Part shown: positions 1,095 to 23,772 of the stretch, piece after piece
Numbering within the stretch: the stretch's first letter is position 1
Layout of the letters: every line of letters starts with the position of its first letter
Assembly (NCBI GenBank): GCA_000309945.1
Contig: CM001633.1
Location: 5,049,174-5,073,173 of the forward strand
Origin: Leptolyngbyaceae cyanobacterium JSC-12
GTDB taxonomy: Bacteria > Cyanobacteriota > Cyanobacteriia > Leptolyngbyales > Leptolyngbyaceae
Direction of reading: 5' to 3'
Length of the DNA: 24,000 nucleotides
Notes under the pieces: model-generated
Seen by the model: the letters and a program-made list of their open reading frames with translations, nothing else
Database searches by the model: none
What the model was told of the DNA's origin: nothing
Program-made: the position numbers and the translations under genes

Positions 1095-3446
1095 ATGTCC
1101 ATCAGTCCTCCGGAACGAGGACAACGGGCAAGAGTTACGGTTGATCGCGATCCAGTCCCCACCTCATTTGAGCCGTGGGCAAAACCGGGTCATTTTGATC
1201 GCACCCTTGCACGCGGTCCTAAAACCACAACCTGGATTTGGAATCTGCATGCCAATGCTCATGATTTTGATTCCCACACCAGTGATTTAGAAGATGTTTC
1301 ACGAAAAATCTTTTCGGCTCACTTTGGGCACTTAGCGATTGTTTTTATCTGGCTTAGTGGCATGTACTTTCATGGTGCTAAGTTTTCTAATTTTGAAGCC
1401 TGGATGAGCAATCCAACCGACATCAGACCCAGTGCCCAGGTGGTTTGGCCGATTTTTGGTCAAGATATTCTAAATGCGGATGTGGGTGGCGGCTTTCACG
1501 GGATTCAAATCACATCTGGACTATTCCAAATGTGGCGTGCGGCTGGTTTTACAAACTCATTTCAACTGTATTGCACAGCAATCGGCGGGTTAGTGATGGC
1601 AGCCTTGATGCTGTTTGCAGGGTGGTTTCATTATCATAAGAGCGCACCCAAGCTGGAATGGTTCCGCAATTGGGAATCTATGATGAATCACCATCTGGCA
1701 GGTTTGCTGGGGTGTGGTGCACTGGGCTGGGCAGGTCACCAGATCCATGTTGCCCTACCCACTAATGAACTTCTGGATCGGGGTGTTGCACTCAAAGAGA
1801 TTCCCCTGCCGCATGAGTTCATTCTCAATAAACAGTTGATGGCAGATATTTATCCCAGTTTTGCCAAAGGGGTTGTCCCTTTCTTCACGCTCAACTGGGG
1901 AGCTTATAGCGATTTCCTGACTTTTAAGGGAGGGCTAAATCCGGTAACGGGTGGGCTTTGGTTAACGGATACAGCTCATCACCATGTGGCGATCGCAGTT
2001 CTGTTCATCATTGCAGGTCATTTTTATCGCACCAATTGGGGCATTGGGCACACGTTCAGAGAATTACTAGATGATGCTAGAACGCCAAAAATGTTCCCCT
2101 TATTTGGGTTTATTGGTCCAGTTGGGCACCAGGGGCTAGACAAAATCTTTGAAACCTCCTGGCATGCCAACCTGGCAATTCACCTGGTGCAATTTGGCAC
2201 TGCCAGTTTACTCGTGGCCCATCACATGTATGCCATGCCACCTTACCCCTATCTGGCAACAGACTATGCCACAGTCACTTCACTCTTCACCCATCATGTG
2301 TGGATTGCTGGCTTCTGTATTGTCGGTGGTGCAGCCCATGCCGCTATTTTCATGGTGCGGGATTACAATCCGGCAGATCATGTTAACAACGTGCTTGATC
2401 GCGTCTTGCGACACCGGGATGCCATTATTTCTCATCTTGCCTGGGTCTGCCAATTTTTGGGCTTCCACAGCTTTGCCATGTATTGCCACAACGATACAAT
2501 GCGAGCCTTTGGACGTCCCCAGGATATGTTCTCTGATACAGGCATTCAATTACAGCCTGTGTTTGCTCAGTGGATTCAGCACATTCATACAGCAGCCGTT
2601 GGTGCTGCCCAAACAGCCCAACCCTTAGGCAATGTGTTTGGGGGGCTGCGCAATATTGAACTCAGCGGTTTAGGTCAGACAGCTCCTCACATCATGGGTC
2701 CAGTGAGCCATGCCTGGGGAGGCGGCGTGGTTGCAGTCGCTGGTAAAGTTGCCATGATGCCCATCCCACTGGGTACTGCTGATTTCATGATTCACCACAT
2801 CCATGCCTTTACGATTCATGTCACCGTTTTAGTGCTGTTGAAAGGTGTCCTATTTGCCCGCAGTTCACGTCTCATCCCTGATAAAGCAAATCTGGGCTTC
2901 CGCTTCCCTTGCGACGGTCCTGGACGTGGAGGCACTTGTCAGGTCTCTGCCTGGGATCATGTCTTCCTCGGCTTGTTCTGGATGTACAACTCCCTGTCGA
3001 TGGTGATTTTCCACTTTTTCTGGAAGATGCAATCGGACGTATGGGGAACGGTTGCACCTGATGGGACGATCAACCACATCACAGGTGGAAACTTTGCTGT
3101 CTCTTCAATAACCAATAATGGTTGGCTACGAGACTTTCTGTGGGCGCAATCGACCCAGGTTATCACCTCCTACAATTCAGCATTGTCGGCATATGGTTTG
3201 CTATTCCTGGGTGGTCACTTTGTGTTTGGGTTTAGCCTGATGTTTTTGTTCAGTGGGCGGGGCTACTGGCAGGAATTGATTGAGTCGATTGTTTGGGCAC
3301 ATAACAAGCTGAGAATTACACCCACAATTCAACCGCGTGCCCTCAGTATCATTCATGGTCGGGCAGTGGGGGTAGCGCATTACTTACTGGGCGGCATTGT
3401 CACAACTTGGGCATTTTTCCTAGCTCGAACAGTAGCCCTGAGTTGA
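1095..3446 (+). CDS. psaA2: Photosystem I P700 apoprotein A1, far-red paralog (PsaA2)
   Basis: 783-aa ORF with an AAGGAG Shine-Dalgarno (SD) sequence upstream. It shows PsaA hallmarks ([23 protein letters not shown]) and the FX-binding loop [19 protein letters not shown]. It sits in the FaRLiP context next to chlF and apcE2. Confidence 0.95.
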
Positions 3447-3481: not shown

Positions 3482-5713
3482 ATGGCAACTAAATTTCCTA
3501 AATTTAGCCAAGATTTGGCAAGTGATCCGACGACACGGCGACTCTTTTATGCGATCGCCACAGCACACGATTTTGAAAGTCATGATGGCATGACGGAAGA
3601 GAATCTGTATCAACGGATTTTCGCCTCTCATTTTGGACATCTGGCAATTATTTTTCTGTGGGCATCTGGTGTTCTATTTCACGTAGCATGGCAGGGAAAC
3701 TTTGAGCAATGGATCAAAGATCCACTGACGGTCAGACCCATTGCCCATGCCATTTGGGATGCTCAGTTTGGTCCACCTGCGATCGAAGCATATACTCAAG
3801 CTGGTGCTCGTAACCCAGTCGATATCTGCTATTCCGGCGTATATCACTGGTGGTATACCATTGGGATGCGAACCACGAATGATTTGTTTGTGGGTTCCAT
3901 CTTTTTGATTTTCCTGGCATCACTGTTTTTATTTGCTGGGTGGCTCCATCTCCAACCCCGCTTCCGTCCCAATCTGGGTTGGTTCAAAAATGCAGAATCC
4001 CGCTTAAACCATCACCTGGCTGGATTGTTTGGGGTGAGTTCCCTCGCATGGACAGGACACCTGGTACATGTTGCCATTCCTGAATCACGGGGGCAGCATG
4101 TGGGTTGGGATAATTTTTTGTCTGTGCTACCCCATCCCCAAGGGTTAACACCCTTCTTTACGGGAAATTGGATGGCATATGCGGCTAATCCTGATACGCC
4201 CAATCATATTTTTGGCACTTCTCAGGGAGCAGGCACAGCTATCCTCACTTTCCTGGGTGGTTTCCATCCCCAAACAGAATCACTCTGGCTGACGGATATG
4301 GCGCATCACCATCTGGCGATCGCAGTCATTTTCATCATTGCTGGGCATATGTATCGCACCAACTGGGGCATTGGGCATAACATTAAAGAAATGCTAGAAG
4401 CCTTGCATGGACCAGGCTGGAAAGGCTTTTTCATCGCTCCCAGAACTGGACGTGGGCATCAGGGCATTTACGATACCTACAACAACTCATTGCACTTCCA
4501 ACTCGGTTGGCACCTGGCATGTTTAGGCGTGGTGACCTCACTCGTCGCACAGCATATGTATTCCATGCCACCCTATGCCTTCATCTCCAAAGATTTCACC
4601 ACAATGTCAGCGCTATATACTCACCATCAATACATTGCAGGATTTTTGATGGTTGGCGCATTCTCTCATGGTGCAATTTTCCTGGTGCGAGACTATGATC
4701 CTGAATTAAATCGGGATAATGTGCTGGCACGAATGCTAGATCATAAGGAAGCGCTGATTTCCCACTTGAGCTGGGCATCACTGTTCCTAGGTTTTCATAC
4801 CCTCGGTCTTTATGTCCACAATGATGTAGAAGTTGCTTTTGGTTCCGCAGATAAGCAAATTTTAATTGAGCCAGTTTTTGCTCAGTTTATTCAAGCCTCT
4901 CATGGTAAGTTGTTGTACGGGTTTAACACCTTGTTATCTAACCCAGATAGTGTGGCAACAACTGCCTGGCCCAACTATGGCAACGTCTGGCTGCCAGGCT
5001 GGTTAGATGCAGTTAACAATGGCACTAACTCGCTATTCTTGACGATTGGACCTGGCGACTTTTTAGTGCATCATGCGATCGCGCTAGGGTTGCATGTTAC
5101 CACCCTGATTCTGGTGAAAGGAGCCCTTGATGCCAGAGGTTCCAAGCTCATGCCCGATAAAAAAGACTTTGGGTATTCTTTCCCCTGTGATGGTCCTGGA
5201 CGAGGCGGCACCTGCGATATTTCTGCCTGGGATGCGTCTTACCTAGCAGTTTTCTGGATGCTGAATACTCTAGGTTGGATTACCTTCTACTGGCACTGGA
5301 AGCATTTAGCCATCTGGTCAGGCAATGTTGCCCAGTTCAATGAAGGCTCTACCTACCTGATGGGCTGGTTCCGAGACTACCTCTGGCTCTACTCTGGTCC
5401 CTTAGTCAATGGCTACAATCCCTTTGGTACTAGCAGTTTAGCTGTTTGGTCGTGGATGTTCTTGTTTGGTCACCTTGCCTGGGCAGTTAGCTTTATGTTC
5501 CTGATTACCTGGCGCGGCTACTGGCAAGAACTGATCGAAACCTTGCTCTGGGCACATGAGAACACCCCATTATCATTTGGCTACCCCAAAGATAAACCTG
5601 TTGCGTTGTCAATTGTGCAGGCTCGCCTGGTTGGGCTAACCCATTTTACGGTCGGGTATATCGCAACCTATGGTGCGTTTTTGATTGGCGCAACTGCTAG
5701 TAAGTTTGGGTAG
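3482..5713 (+). CDS. psaB2: Photosystem I P700 apoprotein A2, far-red paralog (PsaB2)
   Basis: 743-aa ORF starting 35 nt after psaA2: [20 protein letters not shown]..., [14 protein letters not shown], and FX loop [18 protein letters not shown]. Confidence 0.95.
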
Positions 5714-5803: not shown

Positions 5804-5826
5804 TCTTCTATTGCAGGATATTGATT

Positions 5827-6342
5827 ATGAGCTATACCGATGATACTGATTGGGTGAAACCCTACAAAGGTGATCCGTTTTTAGGAAACTTATCAACTCC
5901 AGTCAACGACTCGCCCTTAGTCCGAGCCTTTATCAGAAACCTCCCTGCCTACCGTCCTGGCTTGACTCCATTCATGCGTGGGCTAGAAATCGGCATGGCG
6001 CATGGGTACTTCTTGATTGGACCTGAAATTGTGGTTGGCCCCTTGCGCGAAACAGCCCATGGAGCAAATTTAAGTGGTTTAATTACAGCCATTTATATTG
6101 CAGTGCTGGCATGTTTGGGAATTTCATTATTTGCTCTTACAACCTTTCAAGGAAATCCCAAAGGGGCATACAGTCGCTATTCTCAGGATGATCTAAGACC
6201 ATTGAGAACGAAGGAAGAATGGTTCCAGCTTAATGGTGGCGTTTTCTTAGGAGCAATGGGCGGAGCTATTTTTGCCTATCTCTTGTTAGAAAACTTTGGC
6301 GATCTGGATGCAATGTTACGTGGAGCCGTGAATATCAATTAG
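5827..6342 (+). CDS. psaL2: Photosystem I subunit XI, far-red paralog (PsaL2)
   Basis: PsaL-like sequence: VKPYKGDPFLGNLSTPVNDSPLVRAFIRNLPAYRPGLTPFMRGLEIGMAHGYFLIGP. The ATG at 5827 is preferred over the TTG at 5821 given in the ORF track. Confidence 0.85.
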   Translation: MSYTDDTDWVKPYKGDPFLGNLSTPVNDSPLVRAFIRNLPAYRPGLTPFMRGLEIGMAHGYFLIGPEIVVGPLRETAHGANLSGLITAIYIAVLACLGISLFALTTFQGNPKGAYSRYSQDDLRPLRTKEEWFQLNGGVFLGAMGGAIFAYLLLENFGDLDAMLRGAVNIN

Positions 6343-6358
6343 TCATTCCATACAATCA

Positions 6359-6392
6359 AGTTTGTTATAGAGATAGATAGCTATAGCAAACT
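6359..6392 (+). other. Intercistronic stem-loop between psaL2 and psaI2
   Basis: AGTTTGTTATAG (6359-6370) pairs with CTATAGCAAACT (6381-6392): 12 bp including one G.U, with a 10-nt loop AGATAGATAG. Confidence 0.45.
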
Positions 6393-6433
6393 CGATGTTT
6401 CACAATTCAGTCATACGAATTTGGAGATTGATT

Positions 6434-6589
6434 ATGGTAGATATGTCTCAGTTAACGGGTGCCTATTCAGCCTCATGGCTACCGTGGATTATGATTCCGC
6501 TAATTTTTTATATTTTGCCGTTTCCGGTAATTGCGATCGTGTTTCTCTGGATAGAAAAAGAAGCTAATGGAGAAGAAACTCAAACGTAA
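6434..6589 (+). CDS. psaI2: Photosystem I subunit VIII, far-red paralog (PsaI2)
   Basis: 51-aa product MVDMSQLTGAYSASWLPWIMIPLIFYILPFPVIAIVFLWIEKE... matches the PsaI single-helix pattern (SxLPxIxIP...). A GGAGA SD lies at 6423-6427. The upstream ATG at 6395 has no SD and adds non-PsaI residues. Confidence 0.75.
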   Translation: MVDMSQLTGAYSASWLPWIMIPLIFYILPFPVIAIVFLWIEKEANGEETQT

Positions 6590-6604
6590 GATTAGTCACA
6601 AGTG

Positions 6605-6653
6605 ATTAGTCATTGGTCATTGGTCATTAGTCATTAGTCATTGGTTATTGGTT
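6605..6653. repeat. STRR-type heptanucleotide tandem repeat (ATTRGTY x7)
   Basis: The copies are ATTAGTC, ATTGGTC, ATTGGTC, ATTAGTC, ATTAGTC, ATTGGTT, ATTGGTT. The unit contains TTGGTCA, the STRR2 unit described in heterocystous cyanobacteria. An extra degenerate copy lies at 6591-6597, and partially complementary sequence (AATGACCAGTGAC) lies at 6657-6685. Confidence 0.85.
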
Positions 6654-6730
6654 CAAAACCAAGTGACAATGACCAGTGACAAAGTAACAGCATGGATAAT
6701 TCACAATCTTGGACAGTGGAGAAGCTGAGT

Positions 6731-7240
6731 ATGCAAGATACATTAACGCGGGTGATTAATCGCTATGATGTGACCGATCGCTTTCTGGATAACGCTGCGA
6801 TCGCGACCCTTACTGAATTCTTAGAAACTGGCAGTCTGCGAGTTCAGGTGGTTGCTGTAATCAACGCTAATGCCGTTGAAATCGTTCGAGAATCCGCCAG
6901 ACAACTGTTTGAGGAACTGCCCTATTTAATTCAACCTGGTGGTAATGCTTATACCACCCGCCGCCATAGTATGTACTTGCGGGACATGGATTATTTCCTA
7001 CGCTACTCCTCCTACGCGCTGTTGACTGGGGATACTAGCATTCTAGATGAGCGCTTGTTGGCTGGATTAAAAGACACCTTTAACTCCCTTGGAATCCCAC
7101 TTGGGGTAACGGCTCGTAGCGTTCAACTGATGAAAGAGCGAACCCATCAAAAACTGATAGAAGCTCAATTAGGCAATCCTGCGTTTGTTGATGAGCCATT
7201 TGATTACATCATCCGAGCCTTAAGTGAACGTAACGTTTAG
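6731..7240 (+). CDS. Allophycocyanin beta-18 (ApcF)-like phycobiliprotein paralog with no cysteine
   Basis: The 169-aa product starts MQDTLTRVINRYDVTDRFLD. The stretch ...FEELPYLIQPGGNAYTTRRHSMYLRDMDYFLRYSSYAL...FVDEPFDYIIRALSERNV is ApcF-like in both motifs and length. The canonical bilin-attachment Cys (..RRYAACLRDMDY..) is Tyr here (codon TAC at 6974-6976), and the protein contains no Cys at all. A GGAGAAG SD precedes the ATG at 6731. Confidence 0.85.
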   Translation: MQDTLTRVINRYDVTDRFLDNAAIATLTEFLETGSLRVQVVAVINANAVEIVRESARQLFEELPYLIQPGGNAYTTRRHSMYLRDMDYFLRYSSYALLTGDTSILDERLLAGLKDTFNSLGIPLGVTARSVQLMKERTHQKLIEAQLGNPAFVDEPFDYIIRALSERNV

Positions 7241-7326: not shown

Positions 7327-7360
7327 AGGGGCGTTGCCAACTAACGTCCCTTTTTTATTT
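7327..7360 (+). terminator. Rho-independent terminator ending the psaA2...apcF-like operon
   Basis: AGGGGCGTT (7327-7335) pairs with AACGTCCCT (7343-7351): 9 bp including one G.U, with a 7-nt loop. It is followed by TTTTTTATTT. Confidence 0.7.
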
Positions 7361-7440
7361 GAATTCTTACGTTTATTCATCAAATTCAAGGATTTTTTCT
7401 ACCTGATTTTTACAAATCTAAAATTGGATATTGATACGAT

Positions 7441-7463: not shown

Positions 7464-7551
7464 TGATTTACTCTTACAATTCATCAGCCTGAATGCTGAA
7501 ACTCCATATCCTGTATTAGTCAGGTGAATACTGTAAGGAGAATTGAATTGC

Positions 7552-8700
7552 ATGTCACAGTCCAGCAGTGAGATTGTGTCTGGTCGTGATTCCGCTCACC
7601 CGACAACAATTACAAGCCCTTTATCAAACCGAAAAACGCTCTCTCAGGTCTGGCAGCAGTTTTGCCAGTGGGTCACCAGTACCGATAATCGTCTTTATAT
7701 CGGGTGGTTTGGGGTGTTAATGATTCCAACCCTGGCAACTGCTGCTATTACATTTATTATCGCGTTTATTGCTGCGCCACCTGTTGACACAACTGGAACT
7801 GGTGCTCCGATCGCTGGTTCCTTATTAGATGGCAATAATCTAATGACGGCGGCGGTTGTTCCAACTTCTGCCGCGATCGGGCTACACTTTTACCCTATTT
7901 GGGCAGCTGCTTCAGTCGATGAGTGGTTATATAACGGTGGTCCCTACCAACTGATTGTGTTGCACTTTGTCATTGGCATTATCTGTTATCAAGACCGGGA
8001 ATGGGAGTTGAGCTATCGTTTGGGAATGCGTCCCTGGATTTCTCTTGCCTTCACAGCTCCTGTTGCAGCAGCATTATCGGTACTATTGATTTACCCGATT
8101 GGGCAGGGTGGTTTTTCGGCAGGAATGCCGTTAGGAATTTCTGGAACCTTCACATTCATGATGCAGTTTCAGGCAGACCATAACATTCTCATGAGTCCAC
8201 TTCACCAACTTGGAGTGGTGGGCGTTGTTGGAGGCGCTTTCTGTTGCGCAATGCATGGCTCATTAGTAACTTCAACGCTGGTTCGTAAAACGGGTGAAAA
8301 TGAATCGATTAATGCAGGGTATCGTTTTGGGCAAAAAGAAGCGACCTACCGCTTTGATGTTGCCCAAACCTACCAACATCGTACCTGGGGACGGTTTTTG
8401 ACATTTCCTAACTCGCGATCGCTCCACTTTATGTTAGCAGCGATTCCCGTAGCAGGTATCTGGTCAGCCGCTTTAGGAGTCGATATTTCTGGACTAAATT
8501 TTCACCGACTCAACCTGAGCCAACCTGATCTTTACAGCAATCGTCGAATTATACAAACCTGGGCAGATCGAGTCACTCAAATTAATGTAGGACTGCAATC
8601 TGTCAGTGAGTCGCGTTCTCAAGAGCTTTTACTGGAAAGCCAACGCCCTCTACCAATGGACTGGGTTGCCGGTGACTCAGTGCCAGTAACCTTTCGATAA
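7552..8700 (+). CDS. chlF: Chlorophyll f synthase (super-rogue D1 paralog, PsbA4/ChlF)
   Basis: It is D1-like over TM helices 1-5, but D170 is Ala ([10 protein letters not shown]), E189 is Asp (QADHN), and the whole [14 protein letters not shown]-terminal ligand region is replaced by unrelated sequence. The diagnostic QD motif is present ([19 protein letters not shown] versus D1 CYMGREWELS). Y161, H198, H215 and SRSLHF are retained. The ATG at 7552 follows an AAGGAG SD. Confidence 0.9.
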
Positions 8701-8842: not shown

Positions 8843-9319
8843 ATGAGTATTGTGACTGAATTAATCCTCAATGCGGACAGTGAAGCTCGTTATCCTGCGC
8901 CAAAGGAACTGCGAATTTTCCAGGATTTTTTGAAAACGGGAGAGCAGCGCATTCGGATTGCAAGACTGCTGGCAGACAATGAGCAACGCATTGTGCAAAA
9001 CGGAAGTGCTAAATTCTGGGAACGAGTTCCTGTAACTCCCAGTAATAGTGGCAACCCCCGCAAAACTGCATCTTGCCAGCGAGATCAAGGATGGTACATT
9101 CGCTTAATTGCCTACTCGATTTTAGCAGGCAGCGAAAAACCCTTAGAAGAAATTGGCACAGTGGGCATTAAAGAGATGTATAACTCCCTCGAAATTCCCC
9201 TGCGGAATATTGTTGAATGTATGCGCTGTTTGAAAGAGGAAGCAGTGTCATTAATGAGTCCAGAAGATGCTGCAGAAGTTGCCCCTTACTTCGATCATAT
9301 TATTCGATCTCTGTCTTAA
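8843..9319 (+). CDS. apcD5: Far-red allophycocyanin alpha-type subunit (ApcD paralog; apcD5, formerly apcA2, by position)
   Basis: The 158-aa product MSIVTELILNADSEARYPAPKEL... has the FRL-type segment [26 protein letters not shown] in place of the canonical PGGNAYG..C(L)RD(Y/L). The attachment Cys is present. A CAGGAGAA SD lies upstream. The paralog number is inferred from the order alpha-apcB2-alpha-apcE2-alpha. Confidence 0.85.
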   Translation: MSIVTELILNADSEARYPAPKELRIFQDFLKTGEQRIRIARLLADNEQRIVQNGSAKFWERVPVTPSNSGNPRKTASCQRDQGWYIRLIAYSILAGSEKPLEEIGTVGIKEMYNSLEIPLRNIVECMRCLKEEAVSLMSPEDAAEVAPYFDHIIRSLS

Positions 9320-9469: not shown

Positions 9470-9955
9470 ATGCAAGATGCAATCACAACTCTGATCAACT
9501 CTTCTGACACTCAAGGAAAATATTTAGATGATGCTAGCTTAGAGAAGCTACAAAACTATTTTCGCAGTGGTGAACTACGAGCTAAAGCAGCAACAAGTAT
9601 CAGTGCAAATGCCAGTACGTTGGTAACGCAAGCTGTTGCGCGATCGCTTATGTATACCGACATCACTGCCCCTGGCGGAAATATGTACACCTGCCGCCGC
9701 TATGCTGCCTGCATCCGGGATTTGGATTACTTCTTGCGCTATGCTACCTACGCCATGTTAGCTGGTGACCCTTCCATTCTAGATGAGCGCGTGTTGAACG
9801 GACTGCGAGAAACTTACAACTCATTAGGTGTTCCAGTTGGTGCAACGATTCGCGCTGTGCAGGCAATGAAAGATGTGGTAACGGATTTGTTAGGAGCAGA
9901 AGCTGGTAAGGAAATGGGCGTTTACTTTGACTACATTGCCGCAGGCTTAAGCTAA
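9470..9955 (+). CDS. apcB2: Far-red allophycocyanin beta subunit (ApcB2)
   Basis: The 161-aa product [21 protein letters not shown]...[44 protein letters not shown]...[10 protein letters not shown] is collinear with ApcB. Cys81 is present, plus an additional Cys75. Confidence 0.9.
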
Positions 9956-9977: not shown

Positions 9978-10457
9978 ATGAGCATTATCACTCGAACGAT
10001 AGCCGTTGCCGATCTAGAAGCTCGATATCTTACTATCGCAGAGTTACAAACGATTCGTGACTTTTTTGAAGCTGGGCAGCAGCGGCTCCGAATTGCTAAC
10101 ATCCTGGCAGCAAACAGCCAAACAATCATCAACACAGGGACACAACGGTTTTGGGAGCGCTGTCCAGTGACTCCTAGTAACAGCGGCAATCCAACCTATC
10201 GAGCTTCGTGCATTCGTGATCAGGGTTGGTATATCCGTTTAGTAACCTACGCATTGGTTGAAGGCGATACCAAAATCATTGATACAGTTGGTATCAGAGG
10301 CGCAAAAGAAATGTACATCTCTCTAGGGATTCCTCTCGAAAACCTGGTGGAGTGTATGCGCTGTCTGAAAGAATCGGCTCTGGATTTGTTGTCGCTAGAT
10401 GATGCAATGGTTGTTGCCCCCTATTTTGATTACATCATTTGTGGGCTAACTCCCTAA
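9978..10457 (+). CDS. apcD2: Far-red allophycocyanin alpha-type subunit (ApcD paralog; apcD2 by position)
   Basis: The 159-aa product MSIITRTIAVADLEARYLTIAEL... carries [27 protein letters not shown]. It starts 22 nt after apcB2. Confidence 0.85.
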   Translation: MSIITRTIAVADLEARYLTIAELQTIRDFFEAGQQRLRIANILAANSQTIINTGTQRFWERCPVTPSNSGNPTYRASCIRDQGWYIRLVTYALVEGDTKIIDTVGIRGAKEMYISLGIPLENLVECMRCLKESALDLLSLDDAMVVAPYFDYIICGLTP

Positions 10458-10634: not shown

Positions 10635-13010
10635 ATGAGCATTTTTATCAGCAGCGGCAGCCCGGTGGCTCATCCGCAACGATACCATACTCTACCGACG
10701 GTTACACTTTCGCAGGCAGAGCAACAAGACCGCTGGCTCAAACCAGGCGAATTGAGTCAATTACTAAGCTTTTTTCGTTCCGGCGCAAAGCGATTGGAGA
10801 TTGCTGAAATCTTGAGCCGCCATGCAGAGCAAATTGTTGCGGCAGCAGGAAATCGGATTTTTGTGTGGGGTTCTCCCATGATGTATTTAGATCCGATGCC
10901 TAATCGGGTGAATTTACCAGGATTTAATAGTTGGGCGTGGCAGCGATCGCGTAGCTCAACTTTCAGTGCAAACCTGCCGCAAAAGTTCAAATATACAGAA
11001 CCAGGAACCGGACTTGGAAATGTTGCCAAAAATAATTGGTTAGAAAGTCTACAGTTTGTGTTTGCTCAGGATCTCGATCCAGTCCCTGATAAGTTCCATC
11101 GCATTAACGTATTACGCTATGGCACTCGCAACATGAAAAAATCAATGCGAGACATTGCCTGGTTCTTGCGCTACGTTATTTATGCGATCGTGGCAGGTGA
11201 TTCTAGCATTCTGACTGTGAATGTCCGGGGTTTGCGGGGTGTCATTCCAGAAAACGTCACGGCTGCAACAGTCGTCGCAATGCAAACATTAAAATGGAAA
11301 AGTTTGAGCTACTTTAAACAAGATCGAGATGCTCAAGAGATTATTCGTCAGCATTTTGATGTACTCATTGCCGAATATCAAACAGAAAGTCCAACTGGAC
11401 ATTTGCGCCAGGGTACATCACTCGATCAACAAGGATTACAGTTGCCAGAAACTTATAAACTCACTAACCTCAGACCTAAATTTGTCATCAAGCCTGGAAT
11501 GGCAACAACAGAACTCCGGGAAGCGATTAGAGCTGCCTACCGTCAAGTATTTGAACGAGATTTAACCCGTGCTTATGGAGTCAGTTTAGGTGATCTGGAA
11601 TCCCAGGTAAAAAGTGGACAGCTATCTGCCAAAGAGTTTATCCGGCGTTTGGGGAAATCTCGCCTGTATCGCCAGGAATTTTATGAACCATTTACTATCA
11701 GTCGTGTCATTGAGTTGGCTGTGCGTCACTTTTTGGGACGAGGGTTGTACTCAATTGAAGAATTTCAAACTTACTTTGATGTCATAACTCAAGGGGGCTT
11801 GGCAGCATTAGTTGATAGATTGGTGGACTCTGAAGAATATAGTGACTACTTCGGGGAAGAAACCATTCCCTATCTGCGGGGATTGGGGCAGGAGGCGCAA
11901 GAATGTCGGAATTGGGGTGCTCAGTTTGAATTATTTAACTTTGGGGCTGCGGCACAAAAAATTCCCCAATTTATCACCCTTTTTGGTAGTTATCGGCAGC
12001 CGTTGCCAAATCAACATCCTTATGGAGCAAGTCATGACCCGCTGGAGATTCAGTTTGGTGCTGTTTTCCCCAAACCTGAACAAACATTAGCTGAACATCC
12101 TGGATATTTTAACGCGAATCATCATCGGATTTTGATTAGCTCTGGCATGAGTCACGGTGCACATAATGGCAATGGCACAAGTCATGACTTTGGTAGAGTG
12201 CCAGGATCGATCGCGTCTCGTCCGCTCAAATTTAGCGTAGCGCATAACAATGCGACTGGTAGTCCCAACCTGAATATTTATCCTCATTCTCCAGAAGCTG
12301 TCATTTTAGCAGCCTATCGTCAGGTGTTTGGAGGTGGTTTGTATGCAGGGCAACGACTTACAGCGGCAGAAGTTAAGTTGAAAAGTGGGGAGATTACGGT
12401 ACGAGAATTTATTCGGCAGTTGGGTAAGTCACGTCTGTTCCGTAGGCAAGCCTGGGAATCGCTTTACATTACTAAAGCAATTGAGTATATTCATCGTCGC
12501 TTGCTAGGACGACCTACTTATGGACGAGAAGAACTAAATCGCTATTATGATCTCTGTGCTCGTCAAGGGTTCTATGCCCTGATTGATGCCTTGATAGATA
12601 GCGCAGAATATAGTGACGTATTTGGCGAAGATACTGTGCCCTATGAACGCTATGTCACACCCAAAGGATTGGCAATGCGATCGCCCAATGGCACAGGCAA
12701 CTCCTGGAAAAACGGCTTTGCGGGGTCTACTCGGCGTCCAGCAGAATTGATTCCTTCAGCGGCTCCAGCACTCGAAGTATCGGAAGGGGGTAAAGCTTGG
12801 GCGTGGATGATGCAAGTCGCTGTTCAGCGATCGCATCTTACCAGCCAGCGATCACTGAACGGATCTCCACCATCTCAGCTTCCACCACCTGCCACCGCAG
12901 TCATCAACGAATTGATGAGTCAAACTTCTGAACCTGCTGTTTCTCCTGATCAACCGAATCAACCGATATCTTCGGCTGAAGAAGGGGAACCCATTGCCAC
13001 ACCATCTTGA
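10635..13010 (+). CDS. apcE2: Far-red phycobilisome core-membrane linker (ApcE2), two REP domains, Cys-less phycobiliprotein domain
   Basis: The N-terminus MSIFISSGSPVAHPQRYHTLPTVTLSQAEQQDRWL is ApcE-like. The PB domain has a loop insertion. It has ..RGLRGVIPENVTAATVV.. where canonical ApcE has ..ENACSGEAT.., so no Cys at the bilin site (V208 at 11256-11258) and none in aa 1-250. There are two linker-REP domains (AYRQVFERD...EEYSDYFGEETIPY and AYRQVFGGG...AEYSDVFGEDTVPY). Confidence 0.9.
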   Translation: MSIFISSGSPVAHPQRYHTLPTVTLSQAEQQDRWLKPGELSQLLSFFRSGAKRLEIAEILSRHAEQIVAAAGNRIFVWGSPMMYLDPMPNRVNLPGFNSWAWQRSRSSTFSANLPQKFKYTEPGTGLGNVAKNNWLESLQFVFAQDLDPVPDKFHRINVLRYGTRNMKKSMRDIAWFLRYVIYAIVAGDSSILTVNVRGLRGVIPENVTAATVVAMQTLKWKSLSYFKQDRDAQEIIRQHFDVLIAEYQTESPTGHLRQGTSLDQQGLQLPETYKLTNLRPKFVIKPGMATTELREAIRAAYRQVFERDLTRAYGVSLGDLESQVKSGQLSAKEFIRRLGKSRLYRQEFYEPFTISRVIELAVRHFLGRGLYSIEEFQTYFDVITQGGLAALVDRLVDSEEYSDYFGEETIPYLRGLGQEAQECRNWGAQFELFNFGAAAQKIPQFITLFGSYRQPLPNQHPYGASHDPLEIQFGAVFPKPEQTLAEHPGYFNANHHRILISSGMSHGAHNGNGTSHDFGRVPGSIASRPLKFSVAHNNATGSPNLNIYPHSPEAVILAAYRQVFGGGLYAGQRLTAAEVKLKSGEITVREFIRQLGKSRLFRRQAWESLYITKAIEYIHRRLLGRPTYGREELNRYYDLCARQGFYALIDALIDSAEYSDVFGEDTVPYERYVTPKGLAMRSPNGTGNSWKNGFAGSTRRPAELIPSAAPALEVSEGGKAWAWMMQVAVQRSHLTSQRSLNGSPPSQLPPPATAVINELMSQTSEPAVSPDQPNQPISSAEEGEPIATPS

Positions 13011-13036: not shown

Positions 13037-13282
13037 ATGACATTCCTTGAGCACCTGTCTATTGCCCTGAACCCCCCTGATCACTTACAGGCTGAAATGG
13101 TGTCCTTACTACATGCTCAAAGGTGTAGGTTGAGTGATTTAGGCTCTGCCATGCGAAAGTGGCTGGGGCAACTGATCGCTTCCGCTAAACGCCCTCGTCG
13201 CGATCGCCGCAACATTGGACGGCTGTACTTCGGTTGGTTTGGCGGCGTGCAGTTTTTTTACAGTCAGGAGAGTAAGCCATGA
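13037..13282 (+). CDS. Hypothetical small basic protein (81 aa) filling the apcE2-apcD3 gap
   Basis: The ORF MTFLEHLSIALNPPDHLQAEMVSLLHAQRCRLSDLGS...RPRRDRRNIGRLYFGWFGG... is open across the whole 268-nt gap. Its TGA overlaps the apcD3 ATG (ATGA at 13279-13282). No homolog was recognised and no clear SD is present, so it could be a chance ORF. Confidence 0.3.
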   Translation: MTFLEHLSIALNPPDHLQAEMVSLLHAQRCRLSDLGSAMRKWLGQLIASAKRPRRDRRNIGRLYFGWFGGVQFFYSQESKP

Positions 13283-13764
13283 GCCTAGTTAAAGAAGTGA
13301 TTGAAACTGCTGATAGCGAAGTGCGCTACCCAACGGCAGGGGAAATTTGGATGATTCAAAATTTCTGCAAATCGGGAGAACAGCGGATTCAAATTGCCAA
13401 CAAATTGGCCTGTAACGAACGCTATCTGGTAGAGCGAGGTAGCCAAAAGTTTTGGCGGCGCTGCCCAGTCACTCCCAGCAACAGTGGCAACTTACGCAAA
13501 ACCAATTCCTGCCAGCGTGACCAAGGGTGGTATATTCGGCTGGTTGCCTATTGTGTTTTGGCAGGTAGCCAAAAACCCCTCGAAGAGATTGGCACCATTG
13601 GCATGAAGGAAATGTATCGCTCGCTAAATATCCCTATTGCTAACTGGGCAGAGGCGATGCGATGCATTAAAGAAGAGGTGATTTTGCTTTTAGGCGAAGC
13701 GGATGCTGCCACGGTGACGCCTTACTTTGATCACATTATTGATACCTTTTCTCAGGGGATTTAA
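13279..13764 (+). CDS. apcD3: Far-red allophycocyanin alpha-type subunit (ApcD paralog; apcD3 by position)
   Basis: The 161-aa product [23 protein letters not shown]... carries [38 protein letters not shown] lies upstream, and psbD3 follows directly. Confidence 0.85.
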
Positions 13765-16247: not shown

Positions 16248-16296
16248 ATTTTAGATTTTAGATTTTGGATTGAATCTAAAATCTAAAATCTAAAAT
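16248..16296 (+). other. Long AT-rich hairpin built from TCTAAAA/TTTTAGA heptamer repeats, 3' of psbC2
   Basis: ATTTTAGATTTTAGATTTTGGATT (16248-16271) pairs with AATCTAAAATCTAAAATCTAAAAT (16273-16296), about 22 bp with one G.U. A T6 run at 16316-16321 follows 20 nt later. Confidence 0.6.
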
Positions 16297-16345
16297 CCAC
16301 AATCTAAATCTGCTGATTTTTTCACGCTTCAGCCCTTTTCGCCCT

Positions 16346-16720
16346 ATGTTTCACTCCTTCTATCTCCTCACGTTTTACCCACTGCAGACTTATTTAACAC
16401 CAATTTGTTTTTTTACTGCATGGATTGTTTTTCTAATGCTCTTTGCTAATCTTTGGGCATTGAGCCAGGATACAGTCACCTATGCTAGCCGAATGTACCA
16501 AATTCCCTGTTCTAATTGTCGTTTTTTCACTGAGAACTATCAACTTAAATGCACAATCCATCCAATTGAAGCATTAACAGAAGCAGCTATTGATTGTCCA
16601 GATTATCAATCAAATGATTACTCCTTTAGCCTTGATCCAAACCCGATGTGCTCAACTTCCAATATGGAAAAAGCAATTACAGAAAATTCCAGAGCGGAAC
16701 CCATGAGCACTAAAGTCTAA
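16346..16720 (+). CDS. Hypothetical membrane-anchored Cys-rich protein (124 aa)
   Basis: An N-terminal hydrophobic helix (ICFFTAWIVFLMLFANLWAL) is followed by IPCSNCRFFTENYQLKCTIHPIEALTEAAIDCPDY (CxxC...C...C). It is on the same strand as, and nested between, psbC2 and psbB2. No strong SD is present. Confidence 0.55.
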   Translation: MFHSFYLLTFYPLQTYLTPICFFTAWIVFLMLFANLWALSQDTVTYASRMYQIPCSNCRFFTENYQLKCTIHPIEALTEAAIDCPDYQSNDYSFSLDPNPMCSTSNMEKAITENSRAEPMSTKV

Positions 16721-18938: not shown

Positions 18939-19418
18939 ATGAAAAGACTGTGTATGCTGGTTTTAGCGATCGCGCTTGTCTGTAGTCTGACATTTCCCGC
19001 CACAGCGAATGCTGGCGTGCTAGTTCCCTGCAAAGAATCCAAACTGTTTCTAGAACGACAAAACTCTGCACCTGATACATATTACTTTAACCAACCTTAC
19101 AAAGCTTACTCAGAATATCTTTTGTGTGGTGAAGATGGGCTACCCCATCTGCCCCTACGGTTTGACCGTGCCGTAGATATTGCCATTCCATTTGGTTTAT
19201 TCTTCTACATTGCTGGCTTTATTGGTTGGAGTGGTCGCGCCTATCTCCTGGCAGCCCAAAACTCTAGTTCACCTGAAGAAAAGGAAATTTTCATCGATAT
19301 TCCTCTGGCAATTCAGTCTTTAATCAAAGGACTGCTTTGGCCACTGTTATTTCTGCAAGAGCTGACCACAGGACGATTAACTGCAAAAGATCAGGAAATT
19401 TACGTTTCTCCTCGCTAA
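18939..19418 (+). CDS. psaF2: Photosystem I subunit III, far-red paralog (PsaF2)
   Basis: The signal peptide MKRLCMLVLAIALVCSLTFPATANA is followed by VLVPCKES...LLCGEDGLPHL...GWSGRAYLLAAQNSSSPEEKEIFIDIPLAI...LTAKDQEIYVSPR, which are typical PsaF motifs. Confidence 0.9.
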   Translation: MKRLCMLVLAIALVCSLTFPATANAGVLVPCKESKLFLERQNSAPDTYYFNQPYKAYSEYLLCGEDGLPHLPLRFDRAVDIAIPFGLFFYIAGFIGWSGRAYLLAAQNSSSPEEKEIFIDIPLAIQSLIKGLLWPLLFLQELTTGRLTAKDQEIYVSPR

Positions 19419-19498
19419 GTACAGAACCATTCCATTTGCTATTTCCACACCAGCAACCAATTCACAATCACCTATTGAGATTTTTGGGAGAGATTCTA

Positions 19499-19639
19499 AT
19501 GACTCACTTCACCAAATATTTGACCAGTGCCCCTATTGTTGCCATCTTGACTCTGGTTTTGCTCGCCACCTTATTAATAGAGTTAAACTATTTATTCCCA
19601 GGATTGCAATACGGTACCTATTTCAAGCCAGCTTTTTAA
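19499..19639 (+). CDS. psaJ2: Photosystem I subunit IX, far-red paralog (PsaJ2)
   Basis: The 46-aa product MTHFTKYLTSAPIVAILTLVLLATLLIELNYLFPGLQY... matches the PsaJ pattern (M.HF..YLS.APV......IE.NR.FP). A GGGAGAG SD lies at 19485-19491. The longer 100-aa ORF overlaps psaF2 and is rejected. Confidence 0.8.
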   Translation: MTHFTKYLTSAPIVAILTLVLLATLLIELNYLFPGLQYGTYFKPAF

Positions 19640-19678: not shown

Positions 19679-20380
19679 CTAGTCAGCATAGTCTGGGTTC
19701 AGGCGATAGTTCCCTCCTGGCAAAGTCTGAATCACATTCTCACAACCTAAATCTAAAAGTTTGCGACGGAGCCGTCGAATTTGTGCAGCCACCACGTTAC
19801 TAGTTCGCTCAGCTTTTACTTCATAGAGGTAGTTTAAGATCTGTCCGTGGCTGGCTGCTTTATACGGATGTTTCATAAAGTATTCCAGTAACTGAAACTC
19901 CTTTTTACTAAGCTGAACGCTACGTTGTCCACATTTAACCGATTGCCAAAAAAGTGTTTGACTGTCACAGTCTAATGTTAAATTACCAAATCGTAGCTGT
20001 AGAGATTGAAATTGGGGAAAGCGACGCCGCAGTGCCCGCAATCGTGCCAATAGTTCCTCTCGTCGAAATGGTTTCATCAAATAATCATCAGCACCAGCAT
20101 CCAAACTTAAAACTCCATCTTCCCAGCGATCAGGCTTAACTAATATTAGCACCAGCAAAGAACTCTGTTGATTGCGTAAGCGTTTGCATAATTCTAATCC
20201 TGTTAGACCTGGCAACTCCCAATTCAAGATTGACAGTATATACTGATTATATTGACTATCTAAATAATTCCAGGCTGAAACTCCATCTTGTACCCAATCA
20301 ACAATATATTTCTCCTGAAGCAGATCTCGATAAATAGATATTCCCAAATCTAGCTCATTTTCAGCAAACAAAATTTTCAT
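19679..20380 (-). CDS. OmpR/PhoB-family winged-helix response regulator with a degenerate (non-phosphorylatable-looking) receiver domain
   Basis: 233 aa. The receiver fold is kept (ILFAENE..., ...DDYLMKPF with the conserved Lys). The phospho-acceptor position reads LNWELPG where the family has LDxxLPG: Asn53, codon at 20222-20224. The acidic pair reads E-N (Asn8), and the Thr/Ser position is hydrophobic (LILVKPD). The C-terminus is a trans_reg_C wHTH (LSKKEFQLLEYFMKHP...AAQIRRLRRKL...YRL). Confidence 0.85.
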   Translation of the reverse strand: MKILFAENELDLGISIYRDLLQEKYIVDWVQDGVSAWNYLDSQYNQYILSILNWELPGLTGLELCKRLRNQQSSLLVLILVKPDRWEDGVLSLDAGADDYLMKPFRREELLARLRALRRRFPQFQSLQLRFGNLTLDCDSQTLFWQSVKCGQRSVQLSKKEFQLLEYFMKHPYKAASHGQILNYLYEVKAERTSNVVAAQIRRLRRKLLDLGCENVIQTLPGGNYRLNPDYAD

Positions 20381-20453
20381 CGCAAATAGTGATTATCTAA
20401 GAAATGCCAACGCTGTGATCGCATGAATGCTGATCTCCAGCTTCACAGTTCAC

Positions 20454-20475
20454 GATGAGATTAAGATGAGATTAG
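20454..20475. repeat. Tandem 11-mer x2 (GATGAGATTAA/GATGAGATTAG) upstream of the response-regulator gene
   Basis: The two units are exactly adjacent and differ only at the last base. They lie 74-95 nt upstream of the minus-strand start at 20380. Confidence 0.6.
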
Positions 20476-20730
20476 GGTTAATCTTTGATATTCCTCTGTA
20501 TCAGAAAAGCTCAATAAAGTTCTTCCAACTCAGGATGTGAGTGAGACCAATGTTACTTTATAAAAGATCACTGGTTCTTCTTAGATTGTTGAAAGAACTC
20601 TATTGAGTGTCTACTAAAATCATAAAATCTCTGGATGAAGTTAGGATGAAAAACATAGCCAGGGTTACTTACTCACTATCTACTTAGATACTTCCTGAAT
20701 TGACTAATCATCACTATATTTGGCTTCATG

Positions 20731-20758
20731 AAAAAAGGCGGCCTATTAAGTACCGCCT
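20731..20758 (-). terminator. Putative rho-independent terminator of the porin gene (minus strand)
   Basis: On the minus strand the sequence reads AGGCGG, an 11-nt loop, CCGCCT, then TTTTTT. It lies about 90 nt downstream of the stop at 20846. Confidence 0.5.
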
Positions 20759-20845
20759 AAGATTAACGGAGGTGTGAGAAGATTTCGATGCTAACCACAC
20801 AAATGAAGGCTAGTTCAAAGAATTAAGGGAATTGATCTGGGGTTC

Positions 20846-22645
20846 TTAGAATGTAAAGGTAGTCCGAACTACACCAACAAACTGAGTATTATTCGCGCTA
20901 TTCCCTTCAGGGTTGAATAATACGAATACTCCGGGCGTAATAGCAATGTTGTCATTCACCCGGTAGCGGTAGAACGCTTCAAGATGGAAGGGTGGATCTT
21001 CATCCAGACGACGGCGCACGTTCGGGTTGGGTAAGCCACGATTGGGACCAGTGGCGAAGCGAGCACGAAAATCGTTATCCACTACGCGAGGTTGCATCCC
21101 AAACAATAGTCCCAATAGATTACCTTTGCGTCCTAAGTCGGGGAAGCCCAAGAAACCAGCCCAGTTAACGATTCGTGCTTCTTCGCTGGTACGTCGATTG
21201 TTGGCAAAGCTGTAGCCGTACCAACCTCCTATCGTAATGGCAGGAGTTAAGCGCCATTGAACTTGGGCAGAAAGGTTATCAGTAGCTGTTGCCTCGCCAC
21301 CGAAAGGATTGGCGGCGTAGCCTGTGCCAGTACTGCCGAAGAGGTTTGGAGCACCTTGATTGAAAACGGTTGAACTGCCTGGGAAATAGGAGCGAACGTA
21401 GGTGAAGCCAATATCAAAGGTGCGAGAAGGGCGAAAGACAATTTGCCCAACGGCAGCATAGTTGCCGTTGAACAGCCCATTCTTCTCTCCCGGATCGTTT
21501 GCATTCACATCAGAGAAATAACCACCCTGCAAGCTGAATTGGGGGCTAAAACGGTAGTCAAACGAAATTCCTGGAGAACTCGTAAATCCCTGGTTGTTAG
21601 CGCGGAAGATTGGATTAAACCGTCCAAAGCGAGAAACAGATCCAAAGCCACTGCTTTCAAATGCGCTGAGGGGTTCGATGAGAGAACTGTAAATTCGACT
21701 TTGAACTGCGTCAACCTGGATGCGGAGATTTTGTCCGAGAGGAAACCGATAATAAAGGTGGTCAACGTTGACGGCATTTGATTCGTTGCCATCGAAGCTT
21801 AGTCGGGTTTCATTAGTACCTGTAAAGTTGCCGCTGAAAGGGGTAACATTGCGTGCTTGCAGCCGCACTCGAAGCCGATCTCTTCCTGTAAAACTGGAAT
21901 CAAGCGCAAGACGAACGCGATTACCGAAGATAGTTTCAGTACGATCGTCTTCTAGGTTGCCTCGGTTGTTGGCGTTGACCCCGCCTAGAAAGCTGTCATT
22001 GCCAGTAAAAATGGCACGATCGCCAAAGGTATCAGCAACCGCAAAAATGACTTCACCGCTTAGTTTCGTCGTTGTGGAGAATTGCTGCTTTTCTAGGGTT
22101 GCTGTGCGAACCTCCAGCGCTTCAACCCGACCTCGCAATGCTGAGAGTTCAGCCGCAAACTCCTCCTGTAAGCGCTTTACGACCTCCAAATCTTCTTTTC
22201 TAACAAAATCAGCCGTGGCAGCCGCGATCAATTCCTGAATTTTGTCTAAGCAAGCATTGAGTCCAGCGGCGAACTCGTAGCGAGTGAGGGCACGATTTCC
22301 CCGGTAAGTTTTGTCGGGATAGCCCACGATGCAACCATAGCGTTCAACCAACGACTGTAAGGCTTGAAATGCCCAATCTGTTGGGTTGACATCCGAGAAT
22401 TGAGAAACTGAGGTTACTTGATTCATTGCTCCATTTTTGCCCTCAGCGCTGTAGCTGCTAACTTGTTGTAAAGTTGCACTACTTTCTGAAACACTGGCTT
22501 GCTCCAACGTCAGAGCTTTAGGTTTAGCTGCTGCGTTAAGACCCATTTGCTTGGGTGCTGAATCTGCGATCGCGGATTCAGAAAGTACCAGCACCATCAT
22601 CAAAAATGCTGGAGCACTCCAGCCAAGATCTCTCAGTAAACGCAT
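20846..22645 (-). CDS. Outer-membrane porin with N-terminal SLH domain, coiled coil and OprB-type beta-barrel (cyanobacterial SomA/Slr1841-like)
   Basis: It has a signal peptide (…LVLSESAIA) and an SLH motif (FSDVNPTDWAFQALQSLVERYGCIVGYPDKTYRGNRALTRYEFAAGLNACL). A heptad-rich segment follows (EDLEVVKRLQEEFAAELSALRGRVEALE). The remainder is Gly/Asn/aromatic-rich with alternating beta-strand pattern and ends ...VVRTTFTF with a C-terminal Phe. Confidence 0.85.
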   Translation of the reverse strand: MRLLRDLGWSAPAFLMMVLVLSESAIADSAPKQMGLNAAAKPKALTLEQASVSESSATLQQVSSYSAEGKNGAMNQVTSVSQFSDVNPTDWAFQALQSLVERYGCIVGYPDKTYRGNRALTRYEFAAGLNACLDKIQELIAAATADFVRKEDLEVVKRLQEEFAAELSALRGRVEALEVRTATLEKQQFSTTTKLSGEVIFAVADTFGDRAIFTGNDSFLGGVNANNRGNLEDDRTETIFGNRVRLALDSSFTGRDRLRVRLQARNVTPFSGNFTGTNETRLSFDGNESNAVNVDHLYYRFPLGQNLRIQVDAVQSRIYSSLIEPLSAFESSGFGSVSRFGRFNPIFRANNQGFTSSPGISFDYRFSPQFSLQGGYFSDVNANDPGEKNGLFNGNYAAVGQIVFRPSRTFDIGFTYVRSYFPGSSTVFNQGAPNLFGSTGTGYAANPFGGEATATDNLSAQVQWRLTPAITIGGWYGYSFANNRRTSEEARIVNWAGFLGFPDLGRKGNLLGLLFGMQPRVVDNDFRARFATGPNRGLPNPNVRRRLDEDPPFHLEAFYRYRVNDNIAITPGVFVLFNPEGNSANNTQFVGVVRTTFTF

Positions 22646-23415: not shown

Positions 23416-23772
23416 ATGACAAAATCAATTATCAATTTAACGTTGCCATTGGTGGTTGCAGAGATTGAGCAAGTTTTAGGAGGCTATCCTCACTACCCTT
23501 ATCAACAAGCTTTTGCCAATCCTGACCTGCGCCAAGAACTCATTGCTTACGTTCTGACACATATCCGCAGCGTTTATGTAGCAATTGATGAAGGAAAGCA
23601 ACAAATTGACAAGCTAAGACCGGGATCTGACTTAGGGGAAACCCAATCGTGTCTAGAGTCTTTTGTTCATCAAGGAATTAACTCCATTCTGCAACAGCAT
23701 CAAGCAATGGCAGATTTTCAAGTACCTAAAGAAAATGATGGATACTTAGCTGCTTCTCACTGGTTTGGCTAA
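23416..23772 (+). CDS. Hypothetical protein, possibly ComFB-like fold (118 aa)
   Basis: A GAGGGGG SD lies upstream. The N-terminal pattern NLTLPLVVAEIEQVL...NPDLRQELIAYVLTHIRSVYVAIDEG resembles cyanobacterial ComFB-family proteins. This assignment is from memory only. The gene ends 15 nt before the next gene. Confidence 0.5.
   Translation: MTKSIINLTLPLVVAEIEQVLGGYPHYPYQQAFANPDLRQELIAYVLTHIRSVYVAIDEGKQQIDKLRPGSDLGETQSCLESFVHQGINSILQQHQAMADFQVPKENDGYLAASHWFG

Follow-up and report, generated by a model that had tools for sequence, protein, structure and literature searches.

The locus at 6731-7240 raises the question of how a phycobiliprotein without a single cysteine might carry a bilin, and whether its place directly behind a set of photosystem I genes has any functional meaning. 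It lies in a 24,000-nucleotide stretch of the Leptolyngbyaceae cyanobacterium JSC-12 genome, a stretch referred to here as the window. The gene is apcF2, which encodes the far-red paralogue of the allophycocyanin beta-18 subunit ApcF, and it is part of a FaRLiP (far-red light photoacclimation) cluster. The features of the window that bear on these questions, all but the heptamer array on the + strand, are as follows.

64-633, +, psbA gene, 3' part, upstream of psaA2
1095-3446, +, psaA2 (NCBIfam psaA match)
3482-5713, +, psaB2 (NCBIfam psaB match)
5821-6342, +, psaL2 (NCBIfam PsaL match)
6434-6589, +, psaI2, 51 aa from an internal ATG, directly upstream of apcF2 (NCBIfam NF008830, E 1.5e-10)
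6591-6652, no strand, about seven tandem ATTGGTC heptamers (Tandem Repeats Finder), most of the psaI2-apcF2 spacer
6718-6721, +, putative Shine-Dalgarno-like GGAG, read from the sequence
6731-7240, +, apcF2 coding sequence, a 169-aa Cys-less allophycocyanin beta-18 paralogue (reading frame and translation, Pfam, PDB match)
6971-6976, +, codons Met81-Tyr82 (atg tac), the lost thioether attachment site, Ala81-Cys82 in canonical ApcF
7327-7361, +, intrinsic-terminator-like hairpin and T-run, 87 nt past the apcF2 stop codon
7543-8700, +, divergent psbA paralogue resembling chlF/psbA4, downstream of apcF2 (TIGR01151 psbA, 510.9 bits against a cutoff of 596)
8843-9319, +, apcD5 (PDB matches among the ApcD5/ApcD2 chains of 8UHE and 9I1R)
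9470-9955, +, apcB2, a canonical FaRLiP apc gene
9978-10457, +, apcD2 (PDB matches among the ApcD5/ApcD2 chains of 8UHE and 9I1R)
10635-13010, +, apcE2, 791 aa, two linker (REP) repeats and a phycobiliprotein domain
13279-13764, +, apcD3, named by position, a third alpha subunit whose PDB scores are about equal for ApcD5 and ApcD3

Identification of apcF2

An intact reading frame of 169 codons runs from an ATG at 6731 to a TAG at 7238-7240 on the + strand. A second in-frame ATG, at 6692, would lengthen the product by 13 residues to 182 aa. We take ATG 6731 as the start because homologues are typically 169 aa long and begin with the consensus MQD, and because the GGAG lies 9 nt before it. The predicted protein contains no Cys whichever of the two codons is used. 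It is 100% identical to protein P0001 of JSC-12, and the gene is intact and conserved, far beyond chance.

Several lines of evidence place the product with ApcF. Pfam PF00502 (phycobilisome protein) covers residues 7-164 with an E value of 5e-52, so that the beta-18-type domain is full-length. The score against the NCBIfam allophycocyanin-beta (apcB) model, 214.2 bits, falls just under the curated cutoff of 228.15, indicating divergence from ApcB proper. In the PDB ranking, ApcF/beta-18 chains take all of the first ten places (E 4e-62 to 9e-49), with ApcB2 and ApcB behind them; the protein is thus nearer to ApcF than to ApcB, and it has the length of about 169 aa and the DEPFDY C-terminal tail of ApcF2. 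The best match (E 4e-62) is chain J of 9I1R, the ApcF2 of Chroococcidiopsis thermalis PCC 7203, with 59.5% ungapped identity over 168 residues. This chain reads RRYNMYVRDMNY at the attachment site, as does the JSC-12 protein, and at each of the 168 positions compared it agrees with P0042 (Chroococcidiopsis).

The protein was compared with canonical ApcF from two structures (7EYD chain Q9 and 7SC7 chain AK). Both types are of equal length and share the DEPFDY...SE tail and the PGGNAYTTRR and RDMDY motifs, and both are expected to sit beside an ApcE phycobiliprotein domain. Identity to Anabaena 7120 ApcF is 52.7%. An assignment as canonical ApcF was considered and rejected, as it fails on Cys82. 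With Tyr at position 82 and not one Cys in the whole sequence, the product is a paralogue.

A sequence-only reading of this DNA had described a 169-aa, Cys-free protein of the ApcF (beta-18) type at 6731-7240, and the reading frame, the translation, the Pfam domain and the ranking of the PDB chains all agree with that description. The motifs on which it drew, FEELPYLIQPGGNAYTTRR, DERLLAGL, DEPFDYIIRALSERN and RRHSMYLRDMDY, are present in the protein. It had also counted five further apc genes (apcD2, apcD3, apcD5, apcB2 and apcE2), and all five are located in the window beside apcF2. Together with chlF and psaA2, these FaRLiP genes surround apcF2.

The gene is not new. Gan et al. (Life 2014/15) named apcF2 in JSC-12, referring to this same gene (PMC4390838). 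They noted that the conserved Cys is replaced by Tyr, implying that phycocyanobilin is bound non-covalently as in ApcE2, and that the gene lies inside the JSC-12 FaRLiP cluster, implying a specific partner for ApcE2 in far-red light (PMC4390838). A Cys-less protein of the ApcF type is therefore a known finding, published for this gene in 2014, and the novelty implied by the sequence-only reading does not hold. For the orthologue, the studies it called for are already in print: a phylogeny, co-expression with phycocyanobilin (PCB) synthesis, and mass spectrometry of far-red complexes. The value of the present analysis is confirmatory: the gene is recognized, the clade is wider and its location in the genome is variable. 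These are details of annotation, not a discovery.

The attachment site and the bilin pocket

In the alignment, Tyr82 (codon tac, 6974-6976) stands where canonical ApcF (RRYAACLRDMDY) has Cys82. The surrounding motif is RRHSMYLRD, in which Tyr stands for the bilin-attachment Cys82 and Met for Ala81. The substitution and the absence of any Cys were both as previously read from the DNA. Residues around the pocket are retained: N72, T76, R77, R84, D85 and Y88 are invariant in 50 members of the ApcF2 clade, and all six are present in the JSC-12 protein. The retention of the Arg-Asp pair and Asn72, noticed earlier in this one sequence, thus extends across the clade. In the 9I1R structure the bilin is contacted by Thr76, Arg77 and Arg84, and Tyr88 does not touch the chromophore (PMC12152189).

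The closest characterized protein is the ApcF2 of C. thermalis PCC 7203 (Chro_1766). Like that of JSC-12, it is 169 aa long, aligns without gaps and carries Met81-Tyr82; the clade-specific and pocket residues are common to the two proteins, and both come from FaRLiP hosts. The C. thermalis protein was detected by proteomics in far-red-grown cells only (PMC8827656). The 2.51 Å cryo-EM structure of the far-red core (9I1R; Commun Biol 2025) captures the bicylindrical core intact and shows the protein in its membrane-proximal trimers, where it forms a heterodimer with ApcE2 (PMC12152189). Its bilin is bound non-covalently, in a ZZZ,ssa rather than a ZZZ,asa configuration and with ring D nearly planar (PMC12152189). 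In heterologous expression, absorbance moves from 651 nm for ApcF to 675 nm for ApcF2 (PMC12152189, after Xu et al., 2016). The two ApcF2 proteins also differ: that of C. thermalis has Cys12, Cys93 and Tyr79, whereas that of JSC-12 has no Cys and has His79. The His79 is one of the near-pocket differences found in the JSC-12 subclade. The entire lack of Cys is likewise typical of this subclade, other members of the ApcF2 clade having one or two Cys elsewhere in the sequence.

Canonical ApcF differs at the site itself. It binds phycocyanobilin covalently through Cys82, in the ZZZ,asa configuration and with absorbance at 651 nm (PMC12152189), while JSC-12 ApcF2 has Tyr82 together with nine clade-specific substitutions. 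A closer parallel is the phycobiliprotein domain of ApcE2, which has also lost its attachment Cys and holds a non-covalent ZZZ,ssa bilin with red-shifted absorbance (PMC12152189). Unlike ApcF2, this alpha-like domain is part of a 791-aa linker protein; it is the more planar and the more strongly red-shifted of the two, and ApcE2 is the presumed terminal emitter (PMC12152189).

Without a Cys for covalent attachment, ApcF2 could be imagined as a chromophore-free beta-type subunit with a purely structural role, a fallback that the sequence-only reading had offered. We regard this as highly improbable. The orthologue contains a bilin in the cryo-EM map of 9I1R and binds PCB when expressed heterologously (PMC12152189), and the invariance of Asn72, Thr76, Arg77, Arg84 and Asp85 in the 50 clade members would be unexpected for an empty pocket. 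The other possibility raised there, a non-covalent bilin in a beta-18 position next to ApcE2, has fared better: it was proposed for this gene (PMC4390838) and shown for the C. thermalis orthologue (PMC12152189, PMC8827656).

The published account very probably applies to JSC-12, namely that ApcF2 stands in for ApcF next to the phycobiliprotein domain of ApcE2 and provides a red-shifted beta chromophore, a phycocyanobilin held without a thioether. During far-red acclimation, ApcF2 most likely takes the place of ApcF as the beta partner of this domain, an exchange that would concern those trimers of the bicylindrical far-red allophycocyanin core that lie nearest to the membrane. With Tyr in place of Cys82, phycocyanobilin would be held non-covalently. 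Loss of the thioether is expected to lengthen the conjugated system, and ring A may flip to give the ZZZ,ssa form as in the C. thermalis orthologue. Longer conjugation and the ring A flip together would move absorbance to about 675 nm, compared with 651 nm for ApcF. A shift of this size would make ApcF2 the reddest beta subunit, beside the presumed terminal emitter ApcE2. All biochemical properties of the JSC-12 protein are inferred here from orthology, the orthologue being about 60% identical, and from the conserved pocket residues. According to the published work, dropping the covalent bilin link in ApcF2, together with ApcE2, tunes the antenna to far-red light. The C. thermalis ApcF2 is also the parent from which the BDFPs, a set of small near-infrared fluorescent proteins, were derived.

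A monophyletic Met-Tyr clade

Among the 120 best homologue clusters, Met81-Tyr82 is found in 54 and Ala81-Cys82 in the other 66. The two pairs sort without exception: M81 and Y82 occur in 54/54 clusters of the ApcF2 clade, and A81 and C82 in 66/66 ApcF clusters. A neighbor-joining tree was calculated from 27 Tyr-type and 22 Cys-type sequences with the ApcB2 of the window as the root; it is a distance tree, not a maximum likelihood tree. In 30/30 bootstrap replicates the Tyr-type sequences are monophyletic, apart from ApcF and grouped with C. thermalis ApcF2. Besides Tyr82, nine near-fixed residues set the clade apart from ApcF: Q2, M81, F89, L109, F117, I122, L124, A128 and S130. Mean column identity within the clade is 76%, and 45 positions are invariant.

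By name, the Tyr-type sequences come from Leptolyngbyaceae, Synechococcales, Phormidesmis, Leptothermofonsia sichuanensis E412, Chroococcidiopsis and Nostoc. The ApcF2 clade extends beyond the two strains given in 2014. The sequence-only reading had proposed asking whether a Cys-less clade is conserved next to psaI2. The first part stands, in that a Met81-Tyr82 clade is conserved and monophyletic; the second does not, since only the JSC-12 lineage has the gene next to psaI2.

These data also bear on whether apcF2 might be a duplicate of apcF that is peculiar to this strain, no longer has the essential Cys and is in decay. It is a second copy of the apcF type, and its attachment site is substituted, as decay might produce. 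Against this, the frame is intact, the Met-Tyr pair recurs in 54 clusters from several named lineages, and the clade is monophyletic with the identity and invariant positions given above. The orthologous protein has, moreover, been found in cells (PMC8827656). We give decay next to no chance. Conservation and the published structure speak against both a decaying copy and a chromophore-free subunit, and in favor of a conserved paralogue that very probably binds its bilin non-covalently.

A profile scan of a species-level genome collection with the ApcF2 alignment returned matches that, as listed, are mostly canonical ApcF and give no basis for a census: Tyr-type sequences account for 6/80 loci among the matches listed, and neither JSC-12 nor an entry under the name C. 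thermalis PCC 7203 is among those matches. Two assemblies carry both a Tyr-type and a Cys-type apcF (L006 with L076, and L011 with L056). JSC-12 itself is said to have two ApcF copies (PMC4390838).

In L. sichuanensis E412, for which far-red acclimation has been reported (PMC10053587), a gene for a Tyr82 ApcF2 is present at 6001-6510 of the locus examined (L003; CP072600.1, 4732511-4745020), with housekeeping genes around it. A 2023 survey of phycobilisome genes in thermophiles gives one apcF homologue per strain (PMC10053587). A second, Cys-less apcF copy of E412 may have been overlooked in that survey.

Position of apcF2 and the question of a photosystem I link

As the sequence-only reading had placed them, psaI2 precedes apcF2 and a terminator-like hairpin follows it. 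The hairpin spans 7327-7351, with 10 pairs and a 5-nt loop, and is followed by TTTTTTATTT. That reading took the placement as a hint of co-expression with FRL-PSI. An extension of this idea is that ApcF2 of the JSC-12 lineage, beyond its role as an ApcE2 partner feeding PSII, is tied to FRL-PSI, either through energy transfer to it or through synthesis in step with it.

Features of the window are consistent with a shared transcript. The gene lies 3' of psaI2 on the same strand and the hairpin lies 3' of it. A consensus scan for sigma-70-like promoters found none in the psaI2-apcF2 spacer of the window, such scans being weak evidence. The spacer is 141 nt long in the window, 127 nt in L085, 26 nt in L001 and 14 nt in L005, and the two shortest suggest an operon in which psaI2 and apcF2 are co-transcribed. 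We infer from this arrangement that apcF2 is probably co-transcribed with psaA2-psaB2-psaL2-psaI2 in JSC-12.

The arrangement is shared by close relatives. The order psaA2-psaB2-psaL2-psaI2-apcF2-chlF-apcD5-apcB2-apcD2-apcE2 is common to L001 and L005, which are 81-88% identical, and to L085, an assembly that is 99.0% identical to the window over 12.5 kb and equal in gene order. At 75% identity, in Leptolyngbyaceae RU_5_1 (L002), a 360-aa psbA-family gene precedes apcF2, and apcD5 follows. At about 56-61% identity, apcF2 is found without FaRLiP neighbors and, at about 60%, with housekeeping genes around it, in E412, Chroococcidiopsis, two Nostoc MAGs, a Synechococcales MAG and CSU_1_3. Some species have been reported to carry apcF2 outside the FaRLiP cluster (PMC12152189); C. 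thermalis is among them, whereas in JSC-12 the gene lies inside the cluster, after psaI2. Because the site behind psaI2 is limited to relatives at least 81% identical, we consider it a lineage-specific arrangement and not a conserved link to photosystem I.

Other observations also weigh against such a link. The FaRLiP cluster is co-induced as a whole anyway. The terminator-like site is not conserved: there is none between apcF2 and chlF in L005, and in L001 just a weak 5-pair terminator-like site lies about 310 nt downstream of apcF2. The solved complex has ApcF2 within the allophycocyanin core, next to ApcE2, the linker that anchors to PSII (PMC12152189). The adjacency to psaI2 therefore lends no support to a functional link with FRL-PSI. 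We think it unlikely, and by a wide margin, that capture of apcF2 into the psaA2-psaB2-psaL2-psaI2 operon in the JSC-12 lineage would reflect lineage-specific delivery of energy to FRL-PSI or matched synthesis. The role of ApcF2 as the beta partner of ApcE2 in the core is the reading we prefer.

The L085 spacer is exactly two heptamers shorter than that of the window, which suggests variation in copy number of the repeat. Further heptamer arrays occur in the window at 867-889 and 16248-16308. The psaI2 genes called in L001 and L085 also encode 51 aa, as in JSC-12.

Other genes of the cluster

The gene at 7543-8700, which scores below the psbA cutoff, is presumably chlF, judging by its position in the FaRLiP cluster. 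ApcE2 has Cys at residues 424 and 641 only; its phycobiliprotein domain is thus without an attachment Cys, as expected for a far-red ApcE2. The subunit encoded at the apcD3 position is 161 aa long and keeps Cys78. In the PDB search it scores slightly closer to ApcD5 (E 2e-62) than to the ApcD3 chains (E 4e-58 and 9e-57). The solved ApcD3 proteins, 175-181 aa long, have a C-terminal extension that this subunit lacks.

Further downstream are psbD3, psbC2, psbB2, psbH2, psaF2 and psaJ2. The last two (18939-19639, +) lie 3' of psbH2, separate from psaA2-psaB2-psaL2-psaI2. Past psaJ2, the opposite strand (19679-22645, -) encodes an iron-uptake porin and an RppA-type response regulator, the latter scoring above the NCBIfam cutoff. 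The window contains no rfpA, rfpB or rfpC; in L002 these genes are upstream of the psbA-family gene.

Two small open reading frames were also noted. One, of 124 aa (16346-16720, +), lies between psbC2 and psbB2; its N-terminus is hydrophobic, and its second half contains several Cys. Pfam and NCBIfam gave no match to it, and nothing similar was found in the loci compared or among the small open reading frames inside their related clusters. The frame may encode a genuine small protein or may have arisen by chance. The other, of 118 aa (23416-23772, +), lies about 3.8 kb past psaJ2, the last FaRLiP gene, and gives a weak ComFB-like Pfam match (E 9e-5, under the cutoff). A 121-aa open reading frame between apcD2 and apcE2 (9819-10184 in L001 and 9164-9532 in L002) shares 44% identity with it. 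The L001 and L002 versions are 60% identical to one another, and both lie inside Leptolyngbyaceae FaRLiP clusters. The 118-aa frame may encode a small protein that is recurrently tied to FaRLiP clusters.
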